A stretch of DNA of 64,000 nucleotides from Escherichia phage UP19, in the sequence record OX638288; one strand, written 5' to 3'. Shown piece after piece: positions 3,974 to 54,189 of this stretch. Under the pieces are notes generated by a model, which saw nothing but the letters and a program-made list of their open reading frames with translations, searched no databases and was not told the DNA's origin. Numbering within the stretch: position 1 is the stretch's first letter; the number at the start of each line of letters is the position of its first letter. The translations under genes and the position numbers were made by a program.

Positions 3974-4450
3974 ATGAAGGTCAAGATTAAGGATACCGTA
4001 TTGTATTCCTTAAGTCAAGACCCATCCCAAGATAAGAAAGAAGTATTGACTCGGTGTGTCATTGCAACATATGCCGAGTACATGGTTGCTGATTGGTTGA
4101 AAGGATATGTTAATAGTGGTCTGGAAGACCATGACGACCCTTACACCTACGCCTGGGATGTTTTAGCTCATCCTATGTACTGTGGACTACGTGTAGAGGT
4201 CAAGACCCATCAGTCAGATTCTAAGTGGATTTCCTGCACTACAGGATACTCCGGTGACTTCCCTTATGGAACAGGGATAAACCTGGGGCCGCTCTTGAAT
4301 CATAAAGTTGCAGATTGTATAATTATATTCGACACTTCAGTAAATGAGGCAGGCGACGTCCTGTTCACTCCTAAGTTCTCCGGCGACAGAGAATCCATCA
4401 AAAAACTAGTCCGTAAGAGCAATTACAACGGCTGGTATCTCGCATTATAA
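3974..4450 (+). CDS. hypothetical protein in the T4 denB position (identity not confirmed)
   Basis: ORF 3830..4450 trimmed to first non-overlapping ATG; start uncertain (alternatives 3893, 3932). Confidence 0.4.
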   Translation: MKVKIKDTVLYSLSQDPSQDKKEVLTRCVIATYAEYMVADWLKGYVNSGLEDHDDPYTYAWDVLAHPMYCGLRVEVKTHQSDSKWISCTTGYSGDFPYGTGINLGPLLNHKVADCIIIFDTSVNEAGDVLFTPKFSGDRESIKKLVRKSNYNGWYLAL

Positions 4451-4459
4451 TTAAAAAGT

Positions 4460-4489
4460 GTTTACATACGCCATGGATGGTGTTACTAT
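4460..4489 (+). promoter_or_regulatory. T4-type early promoter (GTTTAC -35, TACTAT -10)
   Basis: GTTTAC ... 18 bp ... TACTAT upstream of ORF at 4519. Confidence 0.5.
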
Positions 4490-4518
4490 CTTCCTATCAA
4501 CTACGAGAGGAAAACAAA

Positions 4519-4779
4519 ATGGATATCAAATTATATTACGCTAAACACAAAGTTACAGGTAAAGTTGTTGCCGCCATGTACGATGCCTCAGGTGAAGATG
4601 TTATTACGGAATTATCCCTTTCTAATTGTAGATTTCTTCGTCCATTGCTAGCATCAAAAAAAGATTTACAAAAACTTATCGACGGTAAATTAGATAATGT
4701 CGATGGTATAGATATCCATTATGAACTCCGCCATGCACTGAATGATGGGTTTATGGAAATAAAAGAGGTGGTGTTTTGA
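4519..4779 (+). CDS. hypothetical protein
   Basis: ATG with GAGAGG ribosome-binding site; in frame with ORF 4477..4779. Confidence 0.5.
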   Translation: MDIKLYYAKHKVTGKVVAAMYDASGEDVITELSLSNCRFLRPLLASKKDLQKLIDGKLDNVDGIDIHYELRHALNDGFMEIKEVVF

Positions 4780-4869
4780 GTAGCAAAATGTGGTGCCTTA
4801 TTTGGATGGCCTGTATCCCTATTATTTGTGTATGTTTTAGTTTATTGTTGTGGAAATTAGCATAAATCA

Positions 4870-4898
4870 GTTTACATCTCCATTGGACATGATACTAT
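4870..4898 (+). promoter_or_regulatory. early promoter inside stem-loop cassette (PeSL-like)
   Basis: GTTTACATCTCCATTGG...TACTATAGACC...AATGGAGATG; inverted repeat flanks the -10. Confidence 0.55.
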
Positions 4899-4924
4899 AG
4901 ACCTATCAACTAATGGAGATGATT

Positions 4925-5035
4925 ATGAAAAACTTACTTAAAGCAATTTGGAACATGTTTGTATTATTGGTCGTATTGAGCATTTTCCCAATCGTTTTTA
5001 TTATTGACCATGTACGTGTATTCTTTAATTTCTGA
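4925..5035 (+). CDS. small hydrophobic peptide (36 aa, predicted single transmembrane helix)
   Basis: MKNLLKAIWNMFVLLVVLSIFPIVFIIDHVRVFFNF; GGAG 7 nt upstream; below ORF-track length cutoff. Confidence 0.45.
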   Translation: MKNLLKAIWNMFVLLVVLSIFPIVFIIDHVRVFFNF

Positions 5036-5045
5036 GGAAAATATT

Positions 5046-5270
5046 ATGAAACTTTTTAAAGATATCGCAGTTGGTGAAAAATTTGTCTTAGGTAATGGAC
5101 AACAATTGATTCGCATTTCTCCTTTAATGGATAATAGTGAGCGTCCCATTCGTACTGAAAACTGTTTGGATTATCCTTTTTATCAAAAGCGTTTTGCTAT
5201 TGAAAATAATACCGAGTGTTTCACGGTTGATGAACTGATGGAATTATCAGAAGAAGTCGACTCTGAATAA
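5046..5270 (+). CDS. hypothetical protein
   Basis: ATG with GAGGAAA ribosome-binding site; in frame with ORF 5004..5270. Confidence 0.5.
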   Translation: MKLFKDIAVGEKFVLGNGQQLIRISPLMDNSERPIRTENCLDYPFYQKRFAIENNTECFTVDELMELSEEVDSE

Positions 5271-5284
5271 TTGAGGAAATTATC

Positions 5285-5629
5285 ATGTCTAAAGTATTTT
5301 TTGGTAATGCTAAGATTATGTTCTTTGAGCAACTCAGTCTTAAAGAGGCATTGGCAGCCTTCAATCAAGAACTGGTTACTGGGTTAGATTCAAAAACTAT
5401 GGCAAGCGCGGATTTCGTTTTCGTTCAAGACCCGGATACAGGGTTTTATCGATTCATCAAATTCCGTATGAGCATGGACCCTGACTATCGTAGTGCTTAC
5501 TATGTGAGTTACGAAAATGTTATCAAAGAATTACGTGATACCTATGGACGTGCTTTGAACCCACTGAATAAGGTATATAATGCGTCCTTTTATACGAGCG
5601 GATTTATTTTAGAACAGCTACAAAAATAG
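5285..5629 (+). CDS. hypothetical protein
   Basis: 114 aa ORF with GAGGAAA ribosome-binding site. Confidence 0.5.
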   Translation: MSKVFFGNAKIMFFEQLSLKEALAAFNQELVTGLDSKTMASADFVFVQDPDTGFYRFIKFRMSMDPDYRSAYYVSYENVIKELRDTYGRALNPLNKVYNASFYTSGFILEQLQK

Positions 5630-5657
5630 TTTACAACCTCGAGAATCATGTTATAAT
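5629..5657 (+). promoter_or_regulatory. early promoter in stem-loop cassette upstream of ndd
   Basis: GTTTACAACCTCGAGAATCATGTTATAATGGTTCTCG. Confidence 0.5.
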
Positions 5658-5706
5658 GGTTCTCGTTGACTGGATAACAAAACATTAATCTACTGAGGAA
5701 ATTGAT

Positions 5707-6156
5707 ATGAATACTTATATGACTCGCGGTAACGTTCTGTCTGCTGGTGCTACTACTGTTGCTTATGTTAAGAATGGCGAATACCAAAATGGTAAGCCTT
5801 CTAAAGAAATCTCAGCTCAGCCAGGCTTCTACTTCTTTGTTAAAGGTGAAGCAGATTCTCGTGTCGTAGCCGCTCGCTTTTATGTCGGTAACCAACGTTC
5901 AGCTCAAGGTCTTGATGGTATTGTGGCTAACATCCGTAAGAAACGTTCTCAATCAGCTCGCACTATGGCAGTGAATGGTGTGGTGTATGAAGTTCTTTAT
6001 GTGCCAGCTTCTAAAATGAAACCTCTGACTACAGGCTTTGGTAAAGGTCAAATTGCAATGGCTTTCACTCGCAATCATAGTTCAGACCTTCAGACACTGG
6101 AAGAAATGAACCGTATGTTGGCCGATAACTTCAAATTCGTTCTGCAGGCTTACTAA
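5707..6156 (+). CDS. ndd: Ndd nucleoid disruption protein
   Basis: 149 aa; C-terminus ...[11 protein letters not shown]...[20 protein letters not shown] matches recalled T4 Ndd. Confidence 0.9.
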
Positions 6157-6243
6157 TGAGTAATTTCCATAACGAACATGTGATGCAATGGCACCGTCAT
6201 AATCTGAAATTAACCGGTGTCTTCGGACGCCCTTGAGGAAAAT

Positions 6244-22077: not shown

Positions 22078-22106
22078 GTTTACTTCTTCCAGGGCCATGA
22101 TATAAT
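22078..22106 (+). promoter_or_regulatory. early promoter for rnh
   Basis: GTTTAC ... TATAAT. Confidence 0.5.
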
Positions 22107-22137
22107 AACCTTCTACACTAATTGGACAGAGGTTCAT

Positions 22138-23085
22138 ATGAACGATTTAGATTTTTTACTTCCTGAAGAAGACCAACAAAAAGATGGATTTTTACTCCTG
22201 GATTTCAGCCAAATCATTATGGCGGCAGCCTTCCAAGAATTTGGTGAAAACGCTGGATTTCCTAAAGTAACCACAGCAATGCTTCGACACCTCGTGTTGA
22301 ATTCAATCAAGAAAAACATTAAAGACTTTAAAAAACAAGGTTACAACCAACTAATCATTTGTGTTGATAACTCTAAATCAGGTTATTGGCGTCGTCGATA
22401 TTCTTCTTATTATAAGAAAAACCGTGCCAAGGCCCGTGACGAATCACCATTTGATTGGGAAGGCTTATTCACTGCAATGCATATTATTGTGGATGAACTG
22501 GAACAAAATATGCCTTATATTGTTATGAATATCGATACAATCGAGGCCGATGACCATATTGCTGTGTTGACTCGTATCCTTACGGCTAAAGGCCATCCGG
22601 TTATGATTGGTTCTTCTGATGGTGACTTTACCCAACTTCATAAATTCCCTGGTGTAAAACAATGGTCTCCAATGCAGAAAAAATTCGTCAAAACAAAATC
22701 TGGTGATGCTCTGCTTGATTGTGTGACTAAGGTTATTAAAGGTGACCGCAAGGATAACGTTGCAAGTATTAAAGTTCGTGGTGATTATTGGTTGACAATG
22801 GTTGAAGGTGAACGTACTCCTAGCACTCGTGCTAAGGAACTTGAAGCAATTGCTCTGAATTATTATGACCATGATATAATTAAAACACTTCTTACTGAGG
22901 AACAATATGAACGTTTCTGTGAAAACCAAATCTTAATTGATATGGACTTTATTCCAGATGATATTGTTGCTTTAATTACTGAAAGATATAATACGTATAA
23001 CAAACCTTCGAAATCTAAAGTTTATCCTTATTTCGTTAAATCAGGTTTGTCTAAACTAACTGCTACAGTAGCTGATTTTTATTAA
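22138..23085 (+). CDS. rnh: RNase H (5'-3' exonuclease, FEN-family)
   Basis: 315 aa; ...DFSQI...YWRR..YYKKNR.KAR...DHIAVL...SSDGDFTQLHK matches recalled T4 RNase H. Confidence 0.9.
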   Translation: MNDLDFLLPEEDQQKDGFLLLDFSQIIMAAAFQEFGENAGFPKVTTAMLRHLVLNSIKKNIKDFKKQGYNQLIICVDNSKSGYWRRRYSSYYKKNRAKARDESPFDWEGLFTAMHIIVDELEQNMPYIVMNIDTIEADDHIAVLTRILTAKGHPVMIGSSDGDFTQLHKFPGVKQWSPMQKKFVKTKSGDALLDCVTKVIKGDRKDNVASIKVRGDYWLTMVEGERTPSTRAKELEAIALNYYDHDIIKTLLTEEQYERFCENQILIDMDFIPDDIVALITERYNTYNKPSKSKVYPYFVKSGLSKLTATVADFY

Positions 23086-26632: not shown

Positions 26633-27754
<1,122 letters not shown>

Positions 27755-34113: not shown

Positions 34114-34141
34114 TTTACATCTCCTCATGATGTGTTAGTAT
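34113..34141 (+). promoter_or_regulatory. early promoter in stem-loop cassette (PeSL-like)
   Basis: GTTTACATCTCCTCATGATG...TAGTATAGACC...AATGAGGAG. Confidence 0.5.
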
Positions 34142-34171
34142 AGACCTACCAACTAATGAGGAGAAAACAAA

Positions 34172-34672
34172 ATGAATATGCAAATGATTACTAACGAAAT
34201 GGTTGTTAAAGCTTTTGGTGATTCTACTGACGGTATCCAAGTTTTTAAAGGTTCTCGTGCGGTAGGTTACCTAACCGATCTTCGTGTTACTTTAGCCAAA
34301 AATGCTAAAAAGAAAATCAAGCAAAAAGAATATTCTACCCGTTATGCAGAAGAAAAGCGTGAAGCCATGCCTGAAGCTGTTAACTCTATGGTTGAGTTTC
34401 TCCAAAACAACCTTTCTAAGTATGATGCTGAGGTATTCATTAATATCAGTCAGCCTAATGTTAAAATCGCAGGAATCACATTCTATTTGATTTGCGACCC
34501 ATTAAGTGACAAGTTTAATCGCCTTGGCATTTCCAGCCCTTACCATACTGCTGAAGAATTGTGTGTGATGTTTGAAACATACAAAATTCAGTGTGAAAAT
34601 CCTAAAACGGTTCTTATCAACTCCCTGTCACGTGATGACATCATCGAGATTATTACCAAATGTCTAAATTAA
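34172..34672 (+). CDS. hypothetical protein (possible Alc by size and position only)
   Basis: 166 aa (T4 Alc 167 aa); no sequence-level confirmation. Confidence 0.4.
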   Translation: MNMQMITNEMVVKAFGDSTDGIQVFKGSRAVGYLTDLRVTLAKNAKKKIKQKEYSTRYAEEKREAMPEAVNSMVEFLQNNLSKYDAEVFINISQPNVKIAGITFYLICDPLSDKFNRLGISSPYHTAEELCVMFETYKIQCENPKTVLINSLSRDDIIEIITKCLN

Positions 34673-41129: not shown

Positions 41130-41158
41130 GTATACATCTCCGGTAGGCATGATACTAT
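41130..41158 (+). promoter_or_regulatory. early promoter cassette with shared leader
   Basis: GTATACATCTCCGGTAGGCATGATACTATAGAC then leader CCAAATAATACGAAAACAAACTGGAGAATAAAATG. Confidence 0.45.
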
Positions 41159-41199
41159 AGACATGTACCAAATAATACGAAAACAAACTGGAGAATAAA

Positions 41200-41532
41200 A
41201 TGAAAACTGTAAACCTGAATGCATCTGTTAAAGCTAAATGTTTCAACGGTGAATATCAAGAAACCATGTGGGTCCTGACTGCAGTTGAAGGTGATATCAT
41301 CGAAGTTGAAACAACTGAAGGTATGGGTACTGATTTCACATTTACCATCGAGCTTCACAACTTCTTTACAGGTTGGATTTATGAACTGAAAACTGTAATT
41401 ACTGGTCGTATCGAAGAAAACAAAATTGGTGAATTCTATTACGTTAATGCCCGTACACGTGCTGAACGTCTGATTGCTCAGATGAAAAAAGTTGGTAAAC
41501 TTGATATGAAAAATTGGAATGTTGTGAAATAA
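41200..41532 (+). CDS. hypothetical protein
   Basis: 110 aa ORF. Confidence 0.5.
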   Translation: MKTVNLNASVKAKCFNGEYQETMWVLTAVEGDIIEVETTEGMGTDFTFTIELHNFFTGWIYELKTVITGRIEENKIGEFYYVNARTRAERLIAQMKKVGKLDMKNWNVVK

Positions 41533-41535
41533 ATG

Positions 41536-41565
41536 TTTTACTTTGGTACAGGTTGTGTTATTATA
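41536..41565 (+). promoter_or_regulatory. early promoter cassette with leader identical to the 41165..41202 leader
   Basis: GTTTTACTTTGGTACAGGTTGTGTTATTATAGACCTGTACC. Confidence 0.45.
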
Positions 41566-41605
41566 GACCTGTACCAAATAATACGAAAACAAACTGGAGA
41601 ATAAA

Positions 41606-41971
41606 ATGAACTACATCAACTTCGAACGTAAATATGTTTCTAACGGTAACGCTGGTTCTTCTGAAGTTATTTGTCTGTGGAAACACAACAACGGCACAGT
41701 GTGCGAAATCGAACAGTGCATGACTCCTAACTACGTTTATATGCGCTTTGAAAATGGTATCACGGTTTCAATCACTATGGAAGGTTCTACTTTTAAAATC
41801 GCTTTGGATGATGATTTCCGTCAACGTGATTTAGGCACCCATCCTTGCTGGAACGGTGATAATCGTAAGCTTCTGGTTAAAACCTGGATTCGTCACATCC
41901 TGAGCAACCGTGCTAAACCTGAACACCTGGAAGCAATCTTTGTTGTAGTTCTGAATGAATTTGATATCTAA
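41606..41971 (+). CDS. hypothetical protein
   Basis: 121 aa ORF. Confidence 0.5.
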   Translation: MNYINFERKYVSNGNAGSSEVICLWKHNNGTVCEIEQCMTPNYVYMRFENGITVSITMEGSTFKIALDDDFRQRDLGTHPCWNGDNRKLLVKTWIRHILSNRAKPEHLEAIFVVVLNEFDI

Positions 41972-52452: not shown

Positions 52453-54189
52453 CTAATTAACTTTAGTAGCTTGACGCATACCAGGAGCAGGAGTGGAAGA
52501 CTGAGGCGGCAAATTATAACTAGTCTTACTCGTTTTCTTGATATTCGTTTGCTGATTTATTTGAGTTGGAGCTTGCTGACTATATTTAGCATTTTCCTTT
52601 GCTCTCATTTGCTCGTCAACCTTTTTAACCTGGGTATTTTCAGGAGATTCCGCTACAGAAGCAGGTTTAGGCTTTTCAGCTTCGTTAAATTTCTCTAAAG
52701 ATTTATTCATCTTATCAAGTAATTGCTGGATATTAAGGTCTTTCGGTGCTCCACCTTTAGCCATAATAGGGTCAGCTAATTGTTTCTCGATATCCGCTTT
52801 AAATGCCTTAGCATTTTCGATATCTTTAGAATCGGGCTTCATTATATTATCGGCGGTTTGGGTTAAACGGATAATATCAGCCTGAGCTTTATCACGTTTC
52901 TTAAAATACTCTAAACGTTCTTCTTCAGGGAGGTCACGGAAGCTTGTGTCAATTCCGCCAGCGCGTAATTGGTCGGCTTGTTCTTTAGTAAGGTTACCGT
53001 ATTTCTCTGCCTGGTTTATAAGCTCAGGTTTACCCTTATACTTCTTATTCATTTTCTCGGCTGTTTCTAAAGCCTCAGCTGAACGTCTATCATGGTACTT
53101 GGCTACTTTAGTTTGGTCTTCGTCATCTAAAGTGGCTCCGGTATTTTGTTGATACGACATTAAAGCGGATGCCTCTACGTTTTCAGCCAAATCACCCATA
53201 CCAGGTATTTTACTTAAAATAGCAGAAATCAATTTAGAAATACCGAGCATTAACAGTTGTGCCATATTTTTGGTAAGATTAACCATACCGCGAATAATAG
53301 CTTCTGCCAGACCTAGCCAATTTCTTTCGCTAAACATAGCTTCAGCATTCTTGGCCCAGGTCATTAAGCCTTCAAGTACGGGTCCCCACTCTTTAAACTT
53401 ATCGTTAAATTTTTTCCATCCTTCATTAAATTGGTCCATGAAATATTGGAAGTATACACGAATAGCATCTATACCAAATATTAAAAGGGCTAGGCCTGCA
53501 GCCAGTTTAGCGGCTTCTGCAGCAGCAGTAATAGTATACTTAAAAAGCATACCTGAAATTCTATCAGCCACGCCCACAGAGGCTTTAAATCCTTTTTCGG
53601 TTATTTTTGTAAGGGCTTCGATTTTATCAGAAAGAGAAGACTTGTCACCTTCTTTACCTTCATTTGAATTTTTAGGAGGTTCTGGTACAAATTCAGCGTC
53701 AGGTTTATTATCTTCAGGCGGAAGAATATCTTCAATAACAGCAGGAACTTTAGGAGTTTCAGCCTTAGGTTCTTCAGGAATAGAGTCTTCAATAACCTTT
53801 AACGAGCTCCCTTCCGGCGGAATAGAAATACCAGAGAATTTAGCCTCCAACATATTAGAAAGCTTATTAATCTTTTCGTTTAATGCATCCGAAAGAGCTT
53901 TAGATTGTTGGGTTTGTTCTGATATAGCTTCGGCCGTTAATTCTGTTCCGGCGACAACATCTTGAACACTTTTATCTACTCGGTCTATAGAATTAATAAT
54001 CTGATTAGACTTTGTTTCAACAACTTCAGAGAGCAATTCAGACGCCGCCTGGGTTTCTGATAAAGCTTCTGTTATATTTCCTAATTCGTCGTTCTGGGTT
54101 TGGGCTAGCGCCTCAGCACGACGCTGAGGAGCCATTTCTTCAATCAGTTTATTGCGACGAAAACTATTCTGATTAGATTCATTCTTCAT
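52453..54189 (-). CDS. 29: gp29 tail length tape-measure / baseplate hub protein
   Basis: 578 aa (T4 gp29 590 aa); long coiled-coil-rich sequence; synteny. Confidence 0.8.
   Translation of the reverse strand: MKNESNQNSFRRNKLIEEMAPQRRAEALAQTQNDELGNITEALSETQAASELLSEVVETKSNQIINSIDRVDKSVQDVVAGTELTAEAISEQTQQSKALSDALNEKINKLSNMLEAKFSGISIPPEGSSLKVIEDSIPEEPKAETPKVPAVIEDILPPEDNKPDAEFVPEPPKNSNEGKEGDKSSLSDKIEALTKITEKGFKASVGVADRISGMLFKYTITAAAEAAKLAAGLALLIFGIDAIRVYFQYFMDQFNEGWKKFNDKFKEWGPVLEGLMTWAKNAEAMFSERNWLGLAEAIIRGMVNLTKNMAQLLMLGISKLISAILSKIPGMGDLAENVEASALMSYQQNTGATLDDEDQTKVAKYHDRRSAEALETAEKMNKKYKGKPELINQAEKYGNLTKEQADQLRAGGIDTSFRDLPEEERLEYFKKRDKAQADIIRLTQTADNIMKPDSKDIENAKAFKADIEKQLADPIMAKGGAPKDLNIQQLLDKMNKSLEKFNEAEKPKPASVAESPENTQVKKVDEQMRAKENAKYSQQAPTQINQQTNIKKTSKTSYNLPPQSSTPAPGMRQATKVN

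Follow-up and report, generated by a model that had tools for sequence, protein, structure and literature searches.

A stretch of 64,000 nucleotides (nt) from Escherichia phage UP19 (sequence record OX638288), called the window hereafter, was analysed around positions 4925..5035, where an open reading frame (ORF) of 36 codons plus a stop codon is found by sequence, ORF list and homology. The ORF is assigned, from its sequence and position, as the Dhakavirus orthologue of T4 ndd.4, an already annotated gene, and ndd.4 and the features described around it lie on the plus strand. An early promoter and a GGAG Shine-Dalgarno (SD) sequence stand directly before the gene, and the SD is held in the 3' arm of a stable hairpin of 12 base pairs (bp), the 5' arm of which lies inside the promoter. 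It is considered fairly probable that promoter, GGAG and ORF make up a self-contained early cassette with a predicted two-level gating via this hairpin. The gene, the promoter type and the modular context are all previously known, and the ndd.4 gene itself is nothing new, being one more copy of a conserved and dispensable early peptide of T4-type phages.

The ndd.4 gene and its start codon

By sequence comparison the phage is a JS98/IME281-like Dhakavirus, positions 4400-5700 of the window being 96.6% identical to Enterobacteria phage vB_EcoM_IME281 and 96.5% identical to JS10, both T4-type coliphages of the genus Dhakavirus. The gene order of the window (rIIA, rIIB, denB.1, denB, small ORFs, ndd, stp, 52.1 and 52) matches that of JS10, IME281 and T4, and in the maps of JS10, IME281, T4, CIP9, PM2, PEi26 and KLB31 ndd.4 lies between denB and ndd, within the early region from rIIB to 52. 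From ATG 4925 to TGA 5033-5035 the ORF translates to MKNLLKAIWNMFVLLVVLSIFPIVFIIDHVRVFFNF (36 amino acids, aa). The JS10 annotation names the ORF ndd.4, and in tblastn searches the JS10 peptide is 94% identical and T4 Ndd.4 (NP_049884, translation MEEQKMKKIIKAIWNVVIILIVLSIFPIVLMIDVLNVYFGFM) is 58% identical across all 36 residues. The same search gave full-length matches in 597 phage records; all the records examined that carry a match are T4-type, and the genera among those whose taxonomy was examined are Tequatrovirus, Dhakavirus, Gaprivervirus, Kanagawavirus and Mosugukvirus. In addition, the peptide matches PHROG 3098 (E = 1.9e-20), residues 1-36 falling on positions 1-36 of the 37 of the profile.

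Other searches gave little. No meaningful match to the 36-aa peptide was found in the local Pfam and NCBIfam libraries; two database homologues carry the precomputed tag PF26889, which could not be named. A word-indexed protein search with the 40-aa form of the product described below returned two clusters only, and a hidden Markov model (HMM) scan of 1.84 billion proteins found only four to five representatives of the ndd.4 family together with one spurious repetitive protein of 970 aa. Searches of 185,579 bacterial and archaeal genomes and of E. coli genomes yielded no relative, so an origin of Ndd.4 in the host, or mimicry of a host protein, is not supported. The name "ndd.4" occurred in a full-text literature search in one paper only, that on the promoter-early stem-loops discussed below, and the product name of T4 Ndd.4 (T4p273), "hypothetical predicted inner membrane", is itself a prediction. 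Homologues in OM386655 (ESCO10), NC_019503 (ime09), ON630910 and PP693301 bear the erroneous names "DNA-directed DNA polymerase" or "naphthalene 1,2-dioxygenase"; in ESCO10 the products next to the homologue are mislabelled too, a propagated annotation error.

Evidence that the ORF is a real gene under purifying selection comes from the substitution pattern in a comparison set of 41 loci from phage records, IMG/VR and metagenomes, which comprises 27 distinct ORF sequences and 18 distinct peptides. The ratio of nonsynonymous to synonymous substitution rates (dN/dS) is 0.05-0.25 in pairwise comparisons between seven ndd.4 lineages, with synonymous differences near saturation; the variable columns at codon positions 1, 2 and 3 number 18, 13 and 29; the remaining two frames of the coding strand are closed by many stops; and frame, start and stop are kept in all 41 loci, which belong to six genera. 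The ORF might be taken for a chance frame within a mobile promoter cassette which is not translated, as it is short, has no match in Pfam or NCBIfam, and its T4 protein was not detected by mass spectrometry proteomics (PMC9697503 supplement), but the low dN/dS, the saturated synonymous sites and the conservation of frame, start and stop effectively refute this explanation, which is regarded as extremely improbable. The T4 ndd.4 RNA is classed as early (PMC9697503 supplement).

The 36-aa start deserves attention, since the longest ORF has 40 codons and begins at ATG 4913 (MEMIMKNLL...), and this form is annotated in JS10 and IME281 and, analogously, in T4. ATG 4925 is preceded by the GGAG at 4915-4918, 6 nt before it, and this ATG with its SD is present in 36 of the 36 distinct upstream-plus-ORF sequences examined, whereas the in-frame ATGs upstream of it (4913 and 4919) are not conserved; for this reason the 36-aa start is preferred. 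ATG 4913 has no SD and lies about 8 nt from the predicted 5' end of the mRNA, the annotated upstream start codon of T4 is ACG in all the Tequatrovirus loci examined except T4 itself, and ndd.4 of PM2 has no upstream ATG at all. Moreover, the internal ATG is already annotated as the start in CIP9, PM2 and OE5505, and the PHROG 3098 profile begins at this Met. On the sequence comparison, therefore, ATG 4925 is a better supported start than the database start 4913, and a true product of 40 aa, although it would correspond to the longest ORF and to the annotated starts, is judged very unlikely. The annotated upstream ATG of T4, JS10 and IME281 is part of the SD region (ATGGAGG) and has no SD of its own, and the ndd.4 annotations of these three phages are probably too long by 4-5 codons. 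The annotated starts are those of T4 ndd.4 at 166636-166764 (4637-4765 of the T4 locus compared) and of JS10 at 2484-2606 of the JS10 locus, the likely products being 37 and 36 aa, respectively; the start codon in the T4, JS10 and IME281 records probably needs correcting.

The earlier note on this DNA, made from the letters and a list of ORFs, had described an ORF with ATG 4925 after GGAG and a 36-aa translation, and both were recovered exactly from the sequence and the ORF list. It had placed the ORF in the early region near rIIB and ndd, with which the rIIB-denB-ndd gene map agrees, and had proposed comparative genomics as a check, which found the conservation described above (597 records; dN/dS 0.05-0.25). 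The ORF is real, yet it is not new, being the ndd.4 of T4 and so annotated in JS10; the term "sub-threshold" calls for a nuance, since JS10 and IME281 annotate the longer mechanical ORF, which begins at ATG 4913 and has 40 aa.

The early promoter and the hairpin at the Shine-Dalgarno sequence

The promoter scan and the sequence place the -35 element GTTTACA at 4870..4876 and the extended -10 element TGaTACTAT at 4890..4898, that is, TTTACA (4871-4876), a 16-nt spacer ending in TG, and TACTAT (4893-4898). From the usual distance of 6-8 nt past the -10 hexamer, transcription is predicted to start at about 4904-4906. The -35 motif G-T-[TAG]-TAC is invariant across 27 orthologous upstream regions, and the promoter fits the T-even early consensus TTTACW-N17-TAYWAT (Comeau 2014, PMC4122927), but with a spacer of 16 nt. 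About 16 early-promoter cassettes of the ndd.4 type occur in the window, and the 23-mer from -10 to +1, TGATACTATAGACCTATCAACTA, has six copies in it at no more than three mismatches, against none expected by chance. Such repeated modules have been named promoter-early stem-loop (PeSL) (Arbiol 2010, PMC2839356; Comeau 2014, PMC4122927), and the exchange of a PeSL-flanked module between T4 and phage PST has been illustrated with T4 ndd.4/ndd.5 (PMC4122927). The ndd.4 cassette has the features of a PeSL, namely an early promoter, a stable stem-loop, repetition in the genome, and gene gain and loss between relatives. The stretch at 4850-4869, where the upstream ORF ends, has 70% A+T against 61% in the whole window. 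Hence two further statements of the earlier note, that a promoter at 4870..4898 drives the ORF and that it is of the PeSL type, agree with the TTTACA-16-TGaTACTAT arrangement of a sigma-70-type T4 early promoter followed by GGAG and with the sixfold recurrence of the 23-mer.

A further early promoter (TTTACA-17-TACTAT with TG, promoter scan) lies upstream at 4461..4489 and drives ORFs of 86 and 29 aa. It is the putative source of transcripts that would read through into ndd.4, and a terminator scan found no terminator-like site between 4489 and 4925.

Folding and inverted-repeat searches place the two arms of the hairpin at 4875..4886 (CATCTCCATTGG, an anti-SD within the promoter spacer directly after the -35 element) and 4910..4921 (CTAATGGAGATG, which holds the SD GGAG 4915-4918 and the ATGs 4913 and 4919). 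Positions 4875-4886 pair with 4910-4921 over 12 bp, and a repeat finder reports the arms 4875-4884/4912-4921 as an inverted repeat of 10 nt with 100% complementarity. For the RNA from the -35 element to the ATG the folding energy is -19.4 kcal/mol; shuffled sequences give -6.8 +/- 2.3 kcal/mol (z = -5.44), none of 200 shuffles being as stable. The 5' arm is upstream of the predicted transcription start and the -10 element is within the hairpin loop. Because the -10 sits in the loop, so that any start 5-9 nt later would fall between the arms, transcripts from the gene's own promoter would lack the 5' arm, and the first 50 nt from the predicted start fold at only -0.9 kcal/mol; a transcript entering from upstream would hold both arms. 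The earlier note had missed that the GGAG belongs to a hairpin, as its 3' arm, and that the 5' arm of this hairpin is inside the promoter.

These features suggest the following mechanism. Immediately after infection, host RNA polymerase would start at about 4905 and give an unstructured mRNA with a short leader and a free SD. Read-through RNA, for example from 4461, would carry 4875-4886, which would pair with 4910-4921 and bury the SD at about -19 kcal/mol, and such mRNA would be poorly translated. If read-through RNA is silent and the gene's own transcript is open, the peptide would be made in a brief immediate-early burst and solely from its own promoter, as is proposed here. The hairpin would in this way insulate ndd.4 from upstream promoters and tie its translation to its own promoter.

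The hairpin may also be read as the stem-loop of the PeSL, which would act as an attenuator or terminator of upstream transcription or as a 3' stabiliser of the upstream mRNA, with the sequestering of the SD being incidental. One PeSL stem-loop of RB49 cuts the expression of a downstream lacZ like a strong terminator, and the stem-loops described lie between -35 and -10 or overlap -10 (Arbiol 2010, PMC2839356); the hairpin in the window is, moreover, intercistronic and begins 10 nt past the upstream stop. However, a U-tract is missing after the 3' arm (GAUGAUUAUGAAAAAC), the loop spans 23 nt, the terminator scan is empty between 3431 and 6406, and the RB49 stems are formed by a G-tract and a C-tract, not by an anti-SD and an SD. 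In addition, the 3' arm is centred on the SD in every lineage and in the alc gene described below, which would be needless for a terminator or a stabiliser. An intrinsic terminator at this hairpin was rejected for the missing U-tract and the missing match in the terminator scan, and the attenuator or stabiliser function as a whole is thought unlikely.

Translational gating by the hairpin is consistent with the comparison of lineages. In Tequatrovirus the arms are CUGUUCUUCCGUGGU and ACUAUGGAGGAACAG (-20.9 kcal/mol, z = -5.13), in Gaprivervirus CAUCUCCAGUGG... and ...CUACUGGAGAUG (-25.5 kcal/mol, z = -7.49), and in PM2 UAGUACUCCU and AGGAGUACUA, with the 5' arm between -10 and +1 (-13.4 kcal/mol, z = -3.72). 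Four ndd.4 lineages therefore share the design with differing arm sequences and positions, a promoter-internal sequence being always joined to the SD. Since the arms are out of register between genera, the hairpin appears to have been rebuilt rather than merely inherited; for the same reason, one positional alignment cannot carry a single consensus structure and pairs were counted per lineage. Pairing is kept in 98.5% of cells in Dhakavirus and Gaprivervirus together, where one pair has changed on both sides from U-A to G-C and three changes on one side only are compatible with pairing; in Tequatrovirus the figure is 97%, again with three compatible changes on one side; the breaks in both sets are limited to terminal or near-terminal pairs.

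The specificity of the pairing was examined in the 16 cassettes of the window by pairing every promoter segment with every translation-initiation region (TIR). The duplex of ndd.4's own promoter and TIR has -18.7 kcal/mol, while the 240 mismatched pairs have a mean of -6.2 (sd 2.6) and a best value of -17.3 kcal/mol, and shuffling only the 13 spacer bases of ndd.4 gives p = 2e-4. Four of the 16 cassettes reach -11.5 kcal/mol or lower, against 0 of 100,000 derangements; they are ndd.4, 34114 (alc), 41131 and the weaker 22079 (rnh). As most cassettes have no anti-SD pairing, the hairpin does not come with the repeat as such.

The alc gene (inhibitor of host transcription; ORF 34172..34672, cassette 34114-34172) gives a second, independent case. 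Its early promoter also has an anti-SD directly after the -35 element (TCTCCTCAT / ATGAGGAGA), and its upstream region was compared in six genera, at five further loci and in the window. The hairpin is formed by UCUCCUCAU / AUGAGGAGA in the Dhakavirus of the window (-15.6 kcal/mol, z = -3.8), by AGUCCCUCGUGUUGUGU / ACAUAACAUGAGGACU in Tequatrovirus (RB14; -25.7 kcal/mol, z = -5.5), by AUCCUCAUCAG / CUGAUGAGGAU in Jiaodavirus (-21.7 kcal/mol, z = -4.2) and by UCUCCAUUUGGUU / AACCAAAUGGAGA in Karamvirus (-23.0 kcal/mol, z = -5.9), and in Mosugukvirus (PM2) it comes after the -10 element (-12.7 kcal/mol, z = -4.1). The design is thus present in five of the six genera, with lineage-specific arms and z from -3.8 to -5.9.

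Further cassettes show the same kind of pairing to varying degrees. In the cassette 41131-41200, before an ORF of 110 aa (41200..41532), the promoter-internal TCTCCGGT pairs with the SD ACTGGAGA, and in 22079-22138, before rnh (22138..23085), AACCTTCT between -10 and +1 pairs more weakly with AGAGGTT. The T4 nrdC.8 cassette (T4 53886-53960) is a paralogue of the ndd.4 cassette including the hairpin (-24.2 kcal/mol), the T4 motB.2, modB and mrh.2 cassettes reach -13 to -15 kcal/mol, and T4 imm.1 (about 27013-27079) shares the promoter half only and has a different TIR and no hairpin (-7.3 kcal/mol). The patterns of imm.1 and nrdC.8 are expected if cassettes recombine between the -10 element and the SD. 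At 41537-41606, before an ORF of 121 aa, a 9-bp inverted repeat (GGTACAGGT / ACCTGTACC) encloses the -10 hexamer, the SD taking no part in it. This promoter-embedded stem-loop is of another kind and comes nearer to the RB49 PeSL as published.

Several observations weigh against gating by the hairpin, or limit its reach. The upstream and the proximal promoter of ndd.4 are both of the early class, so the temporal logic is less obvious than in late genes, and the T4 protein, as noted above, escaped mass spectrometry. The hairpin of CIP9-type Kanagawavirus is a weak version (z = -1.7), the PEi20 group has essentially none (z = -1.5), and alc of a Mosigvirus has no hairpin (-5.5 kcal/mol, z = +0.25); from the last case and the weak ndd.4 versions, the hairpin is not indispensable. 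Classical covariation within lineages is thin, with its one double-sided change, and the T4 hairpins of ndd.4 and nrdC.8 did not arise independently but are paralogues. Furthermore, a pyrimidine-rich tract after the -35 element is common in these promoters, so part of the complementarity to any SD comes free, and with TIRs that are not their own the promoters at 34114 and 41131 likewise form duplexes of -13 to -17 kcal/mol.

The last points could mean that the complementarity is only a by-product, arising where a pyrimidine-rich spacer faces purine-rich SDs, tracts of the TCT/TTCC type being frequent after -35 and foreign promoter/TIR pairs reaching -17 kcal/mol; or the fold could protect the GGAG from the RegB endonuclease, which cuts GGAG/U in intergenic early SDs and is kept off by secondary structure (PMC3014915). 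Against a by-product speak the spacer shuffles already given (p = 2e-4) and the stems themselves, which reach 4-11 bp past the SD core with lineage-specific matched flanks (ATT/AAT vs AGT/ACT, CGTGGT/ACTA(T/C)G, CATCAG/CTGATG and ATTTGGTT/AACCAAAT). As the source of the pairing, a by-product or RegB protection is held to be rather improbable, a shade below attenuation. Protection from RegB and translational gating are not mutually exclusive, and attenuation, RegB protection and by-product pairing may all coexist with gating.

Whether what is seen at ndd.4 and alc extends further is a more tentative matter. That an anti-SD in sigma-70 early promoters is a general, selected feature of T4-type PeSL cassettes is a real prospect, though one we put slightly short of even; the genes concerned would then be translated solely off transcripts from their own promoters, read-through would be silent, and the hairpin would be a translational insulator that sets the limits of an immediate-early burst, an early-gene equivalent of the late e/soc/49/I-TevI switch, which is possibly the real role of the "stem-loop" of the T-even PeSL. 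In T4-type genomes very strong early promoters follow one another head to tail by the dozen, and the avoidance of over-expression has been explained only by putative terminators. If true, a promoter-embedded anti-SD would be a simple alternative, that is, insulation at the level of translation; it would extend the textbook mechanism of T4 late genes to early genes, and in annotation and engineering the outcome of moving cassettes, or of knock-downs with guides against the TIR, would depend on which transcript is targeted.

The peptide, its candidate role and its neighbours

The 36-aa peptide has a grand average of hydropathy (GRAVY) of 1.56 and a single hydrophobic core of 19-21 residues, the best 19-mer being residues 8-26. 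It consists of a K-rich tail (residues 1-6), a hydrophobic helix (about 7-27) and an aromatic tail (28-36) that begins at the invariant D28; the N-tail MKNLLK has a charge of +2 (+3 in most relatives) and the C-tail DHVRVFFNF a net charge of 0. AlphaFold2 gives one helix over residues 2-35 with a predicted local distance difference test (pLDDT) value of 96.8. Hydropathy, core and helix bear out the membrane-type peptide that had been proposed from the letters. The 18 distinct peptides compared share the signature of the family (36-38 aa, one hydrophobic helix, K-rich N-tail, D28); M1, K2, K6, I8, W9, N10, V17, L18, I20, F21, I27, D28 and F34 are invariant in all of them and P22 is present in 17.

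From hydropathy and charge, Ndd.4 is predicted to be a single-pass micro-protein of the inner membrane. By the positive-inside rule for membrane topology, the K-rich tail suggests that the N-terminus is likely in the cytoplasm and the C-terminus in the periplasm. A signal peptide, as annotated in KLB31, was rejected, no plausible cleavage site being seen and the hydrophobic stretch being of transmembrane length.

In T4, a knock-down of ndd.4 was not scored as hitting a fitness gene (PMC11879866 supplement), and the gene is dispensable in the laboratory. It lies in the host-adaptation region beside rII, ndd, stp and ac. Because residues such as W9-N10, F21-P22, D28 and F34 are invariant in a membrane helix, the family is restricted to phages, and the gene is dispensable and located in this region, Ndd.4 is most likely an accessory host-adaptation factor that would bind a particular inner-membrane protein of the host or the phage, and not a general membrane poison.

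The main rival to an accessory factor is a toxin which, like type I toxins or holins, would damage membranes non-specifically; it would depolarise the host membrane and be kept silent by the hairpin. The peptide is very hydrophobic and has only 36 aa, its ribosome-binding site (RBS) is predicted to be tightly controlled, and hok/tisB-type toxin mRNAs typically fold so as to sequester the SD. However, a strong early promoter that is constitutive, and whose own transcript has a free SD, is unlike the silencing of a poison, the polar, aromatic and proline positions that are invariant across genera point to a defined partner, and no homologue was found outside the T4-type phages. Nor was an antisense RNA found, as far as a general promoter scan goes, which noted no strong promoter on the opposite strand, no closer search for antisense RNA having been made; Rfam has no family match in positions 4300-5800 of the window. 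A toxin is accordingly thought improbable, about as much so as attenuation by the hairpin, and the accessory factor is preferred.

At the end of ndd.4, the junction TGAGGAAAATATTATG (5033..5048) makes the stop codon overlap the SD of an ndd.1-like ORF with its ATG at 5046. This design is kept in all lineages except PM2, and the gene that follows differs between relatives; JS10 and JS98 have an insertion of about 170 bp directly after ndd.4, where the window instead has the ndd.1-like ORF. The stretch 5033-5048 resembles a module junction, and its sequence suggests translational coupling. On the other side, immediately upstream of the ndd.4 promoter, a hydrophobic ORF of 29 aa (4776-4865, MSSKMWCLIWMACIPIICVCFSLLLWKLA) matches phrog_8851, the T4 ndd.6 family, and begins with a TTG that overlaps the stop codon of the 86-aa ORF 4519..4779. 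Directly after ndd, an ORF of 26 aa (6156-6236) occupies the position of stp in JS10 and T4 (stp being the activator of the host PrrC anticodon nuclease).

Comparison with known systems

T4 Ndd.4 and the peptide of the window are alike in their single hydrophobic helix and in the invariant K2, K6, W9, N10, F21, D28 and F34, and the two genes share the position between denB and ndd, the early promoter directly upstream, the hairpin design and the next SD overlapping the stop. They differ in the C-tail (DHVRVFFNF in the window, DVLNVYFGFM in T4), in the promoter spacer (16 nt against 17 in T4) and in the sequence and register of the hairpin arms; T4 has ndd.5 upstream and ndd.3 downstream of ndd.4, whereas the window has neither. 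Imm, Ac, gp52.1 and the Ndd.6-like peptide, like Ndd.4, are made early, are short and hydrophobic and come from this dispensable region, but have no sequence similarity to Ndd.4; Imm is larger, and Imm and Ac alter envelope properties according to their annotation.

With the PeSL modules the cassette shares the repeated, intergenic and perhaps A/T-rich nature, the TTTACW...TAYWAT promoter, the stem-loop, the SD and the ATG (PMC2839356, PMC4122927), and it likewise stands beside small accessory ORFs where the genome is plastic. The published PeSL stem-loops, however, are formed in RB49 by a G-tract and a C-tract inside the promoter and in PST/T4 lie "just upstream of the promoter", and they were read as terminators, the word "translation" being absent from the 2010 paper (PMC2839356), whereas the 3' arm in the window is the SD and has no U-tract.

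The closest parallel is found in T4 e, soc, 49, I-TevI and segB and in Aeh1 mobE, the SDs of which are buried in promoter-containing hairpins (PMC3014915; PMC2988022). In this class long early transcripts are silent and short late transcripts are translated, the effect being about 100-fold for gene e (PMC3014915), and according to Edgell et al. all the known cases of RBS hairpins with an embedded promoter are late genes (PMC2988022). For the early counterpart, an SD-sequestering hairpin embedded in an early promoter, no description was found in the accessible literature, much of the older T4 literature being outside reach. The ndd.4 hairpin resembles the e/soc/49/I-TevI type in having the SD in a stable helix, the promoter inside it, proximal transcripts that would lack the 5' arm, and conservation among relatives. 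The embedded promoters of that type are, however, late ones (gp55), which turn the genes from off early to on late, while that of ndd.4 is a sigma-70 early promoter. By analogy, then, the ndd.4 hairpin is best classed as a variant of the e/soc/49/I-TevI class and not as a member of it as defined, and the SD-sequestering hairpin embedded in an early promoter is the new element described here, a variant of the classical T4 mechanism.

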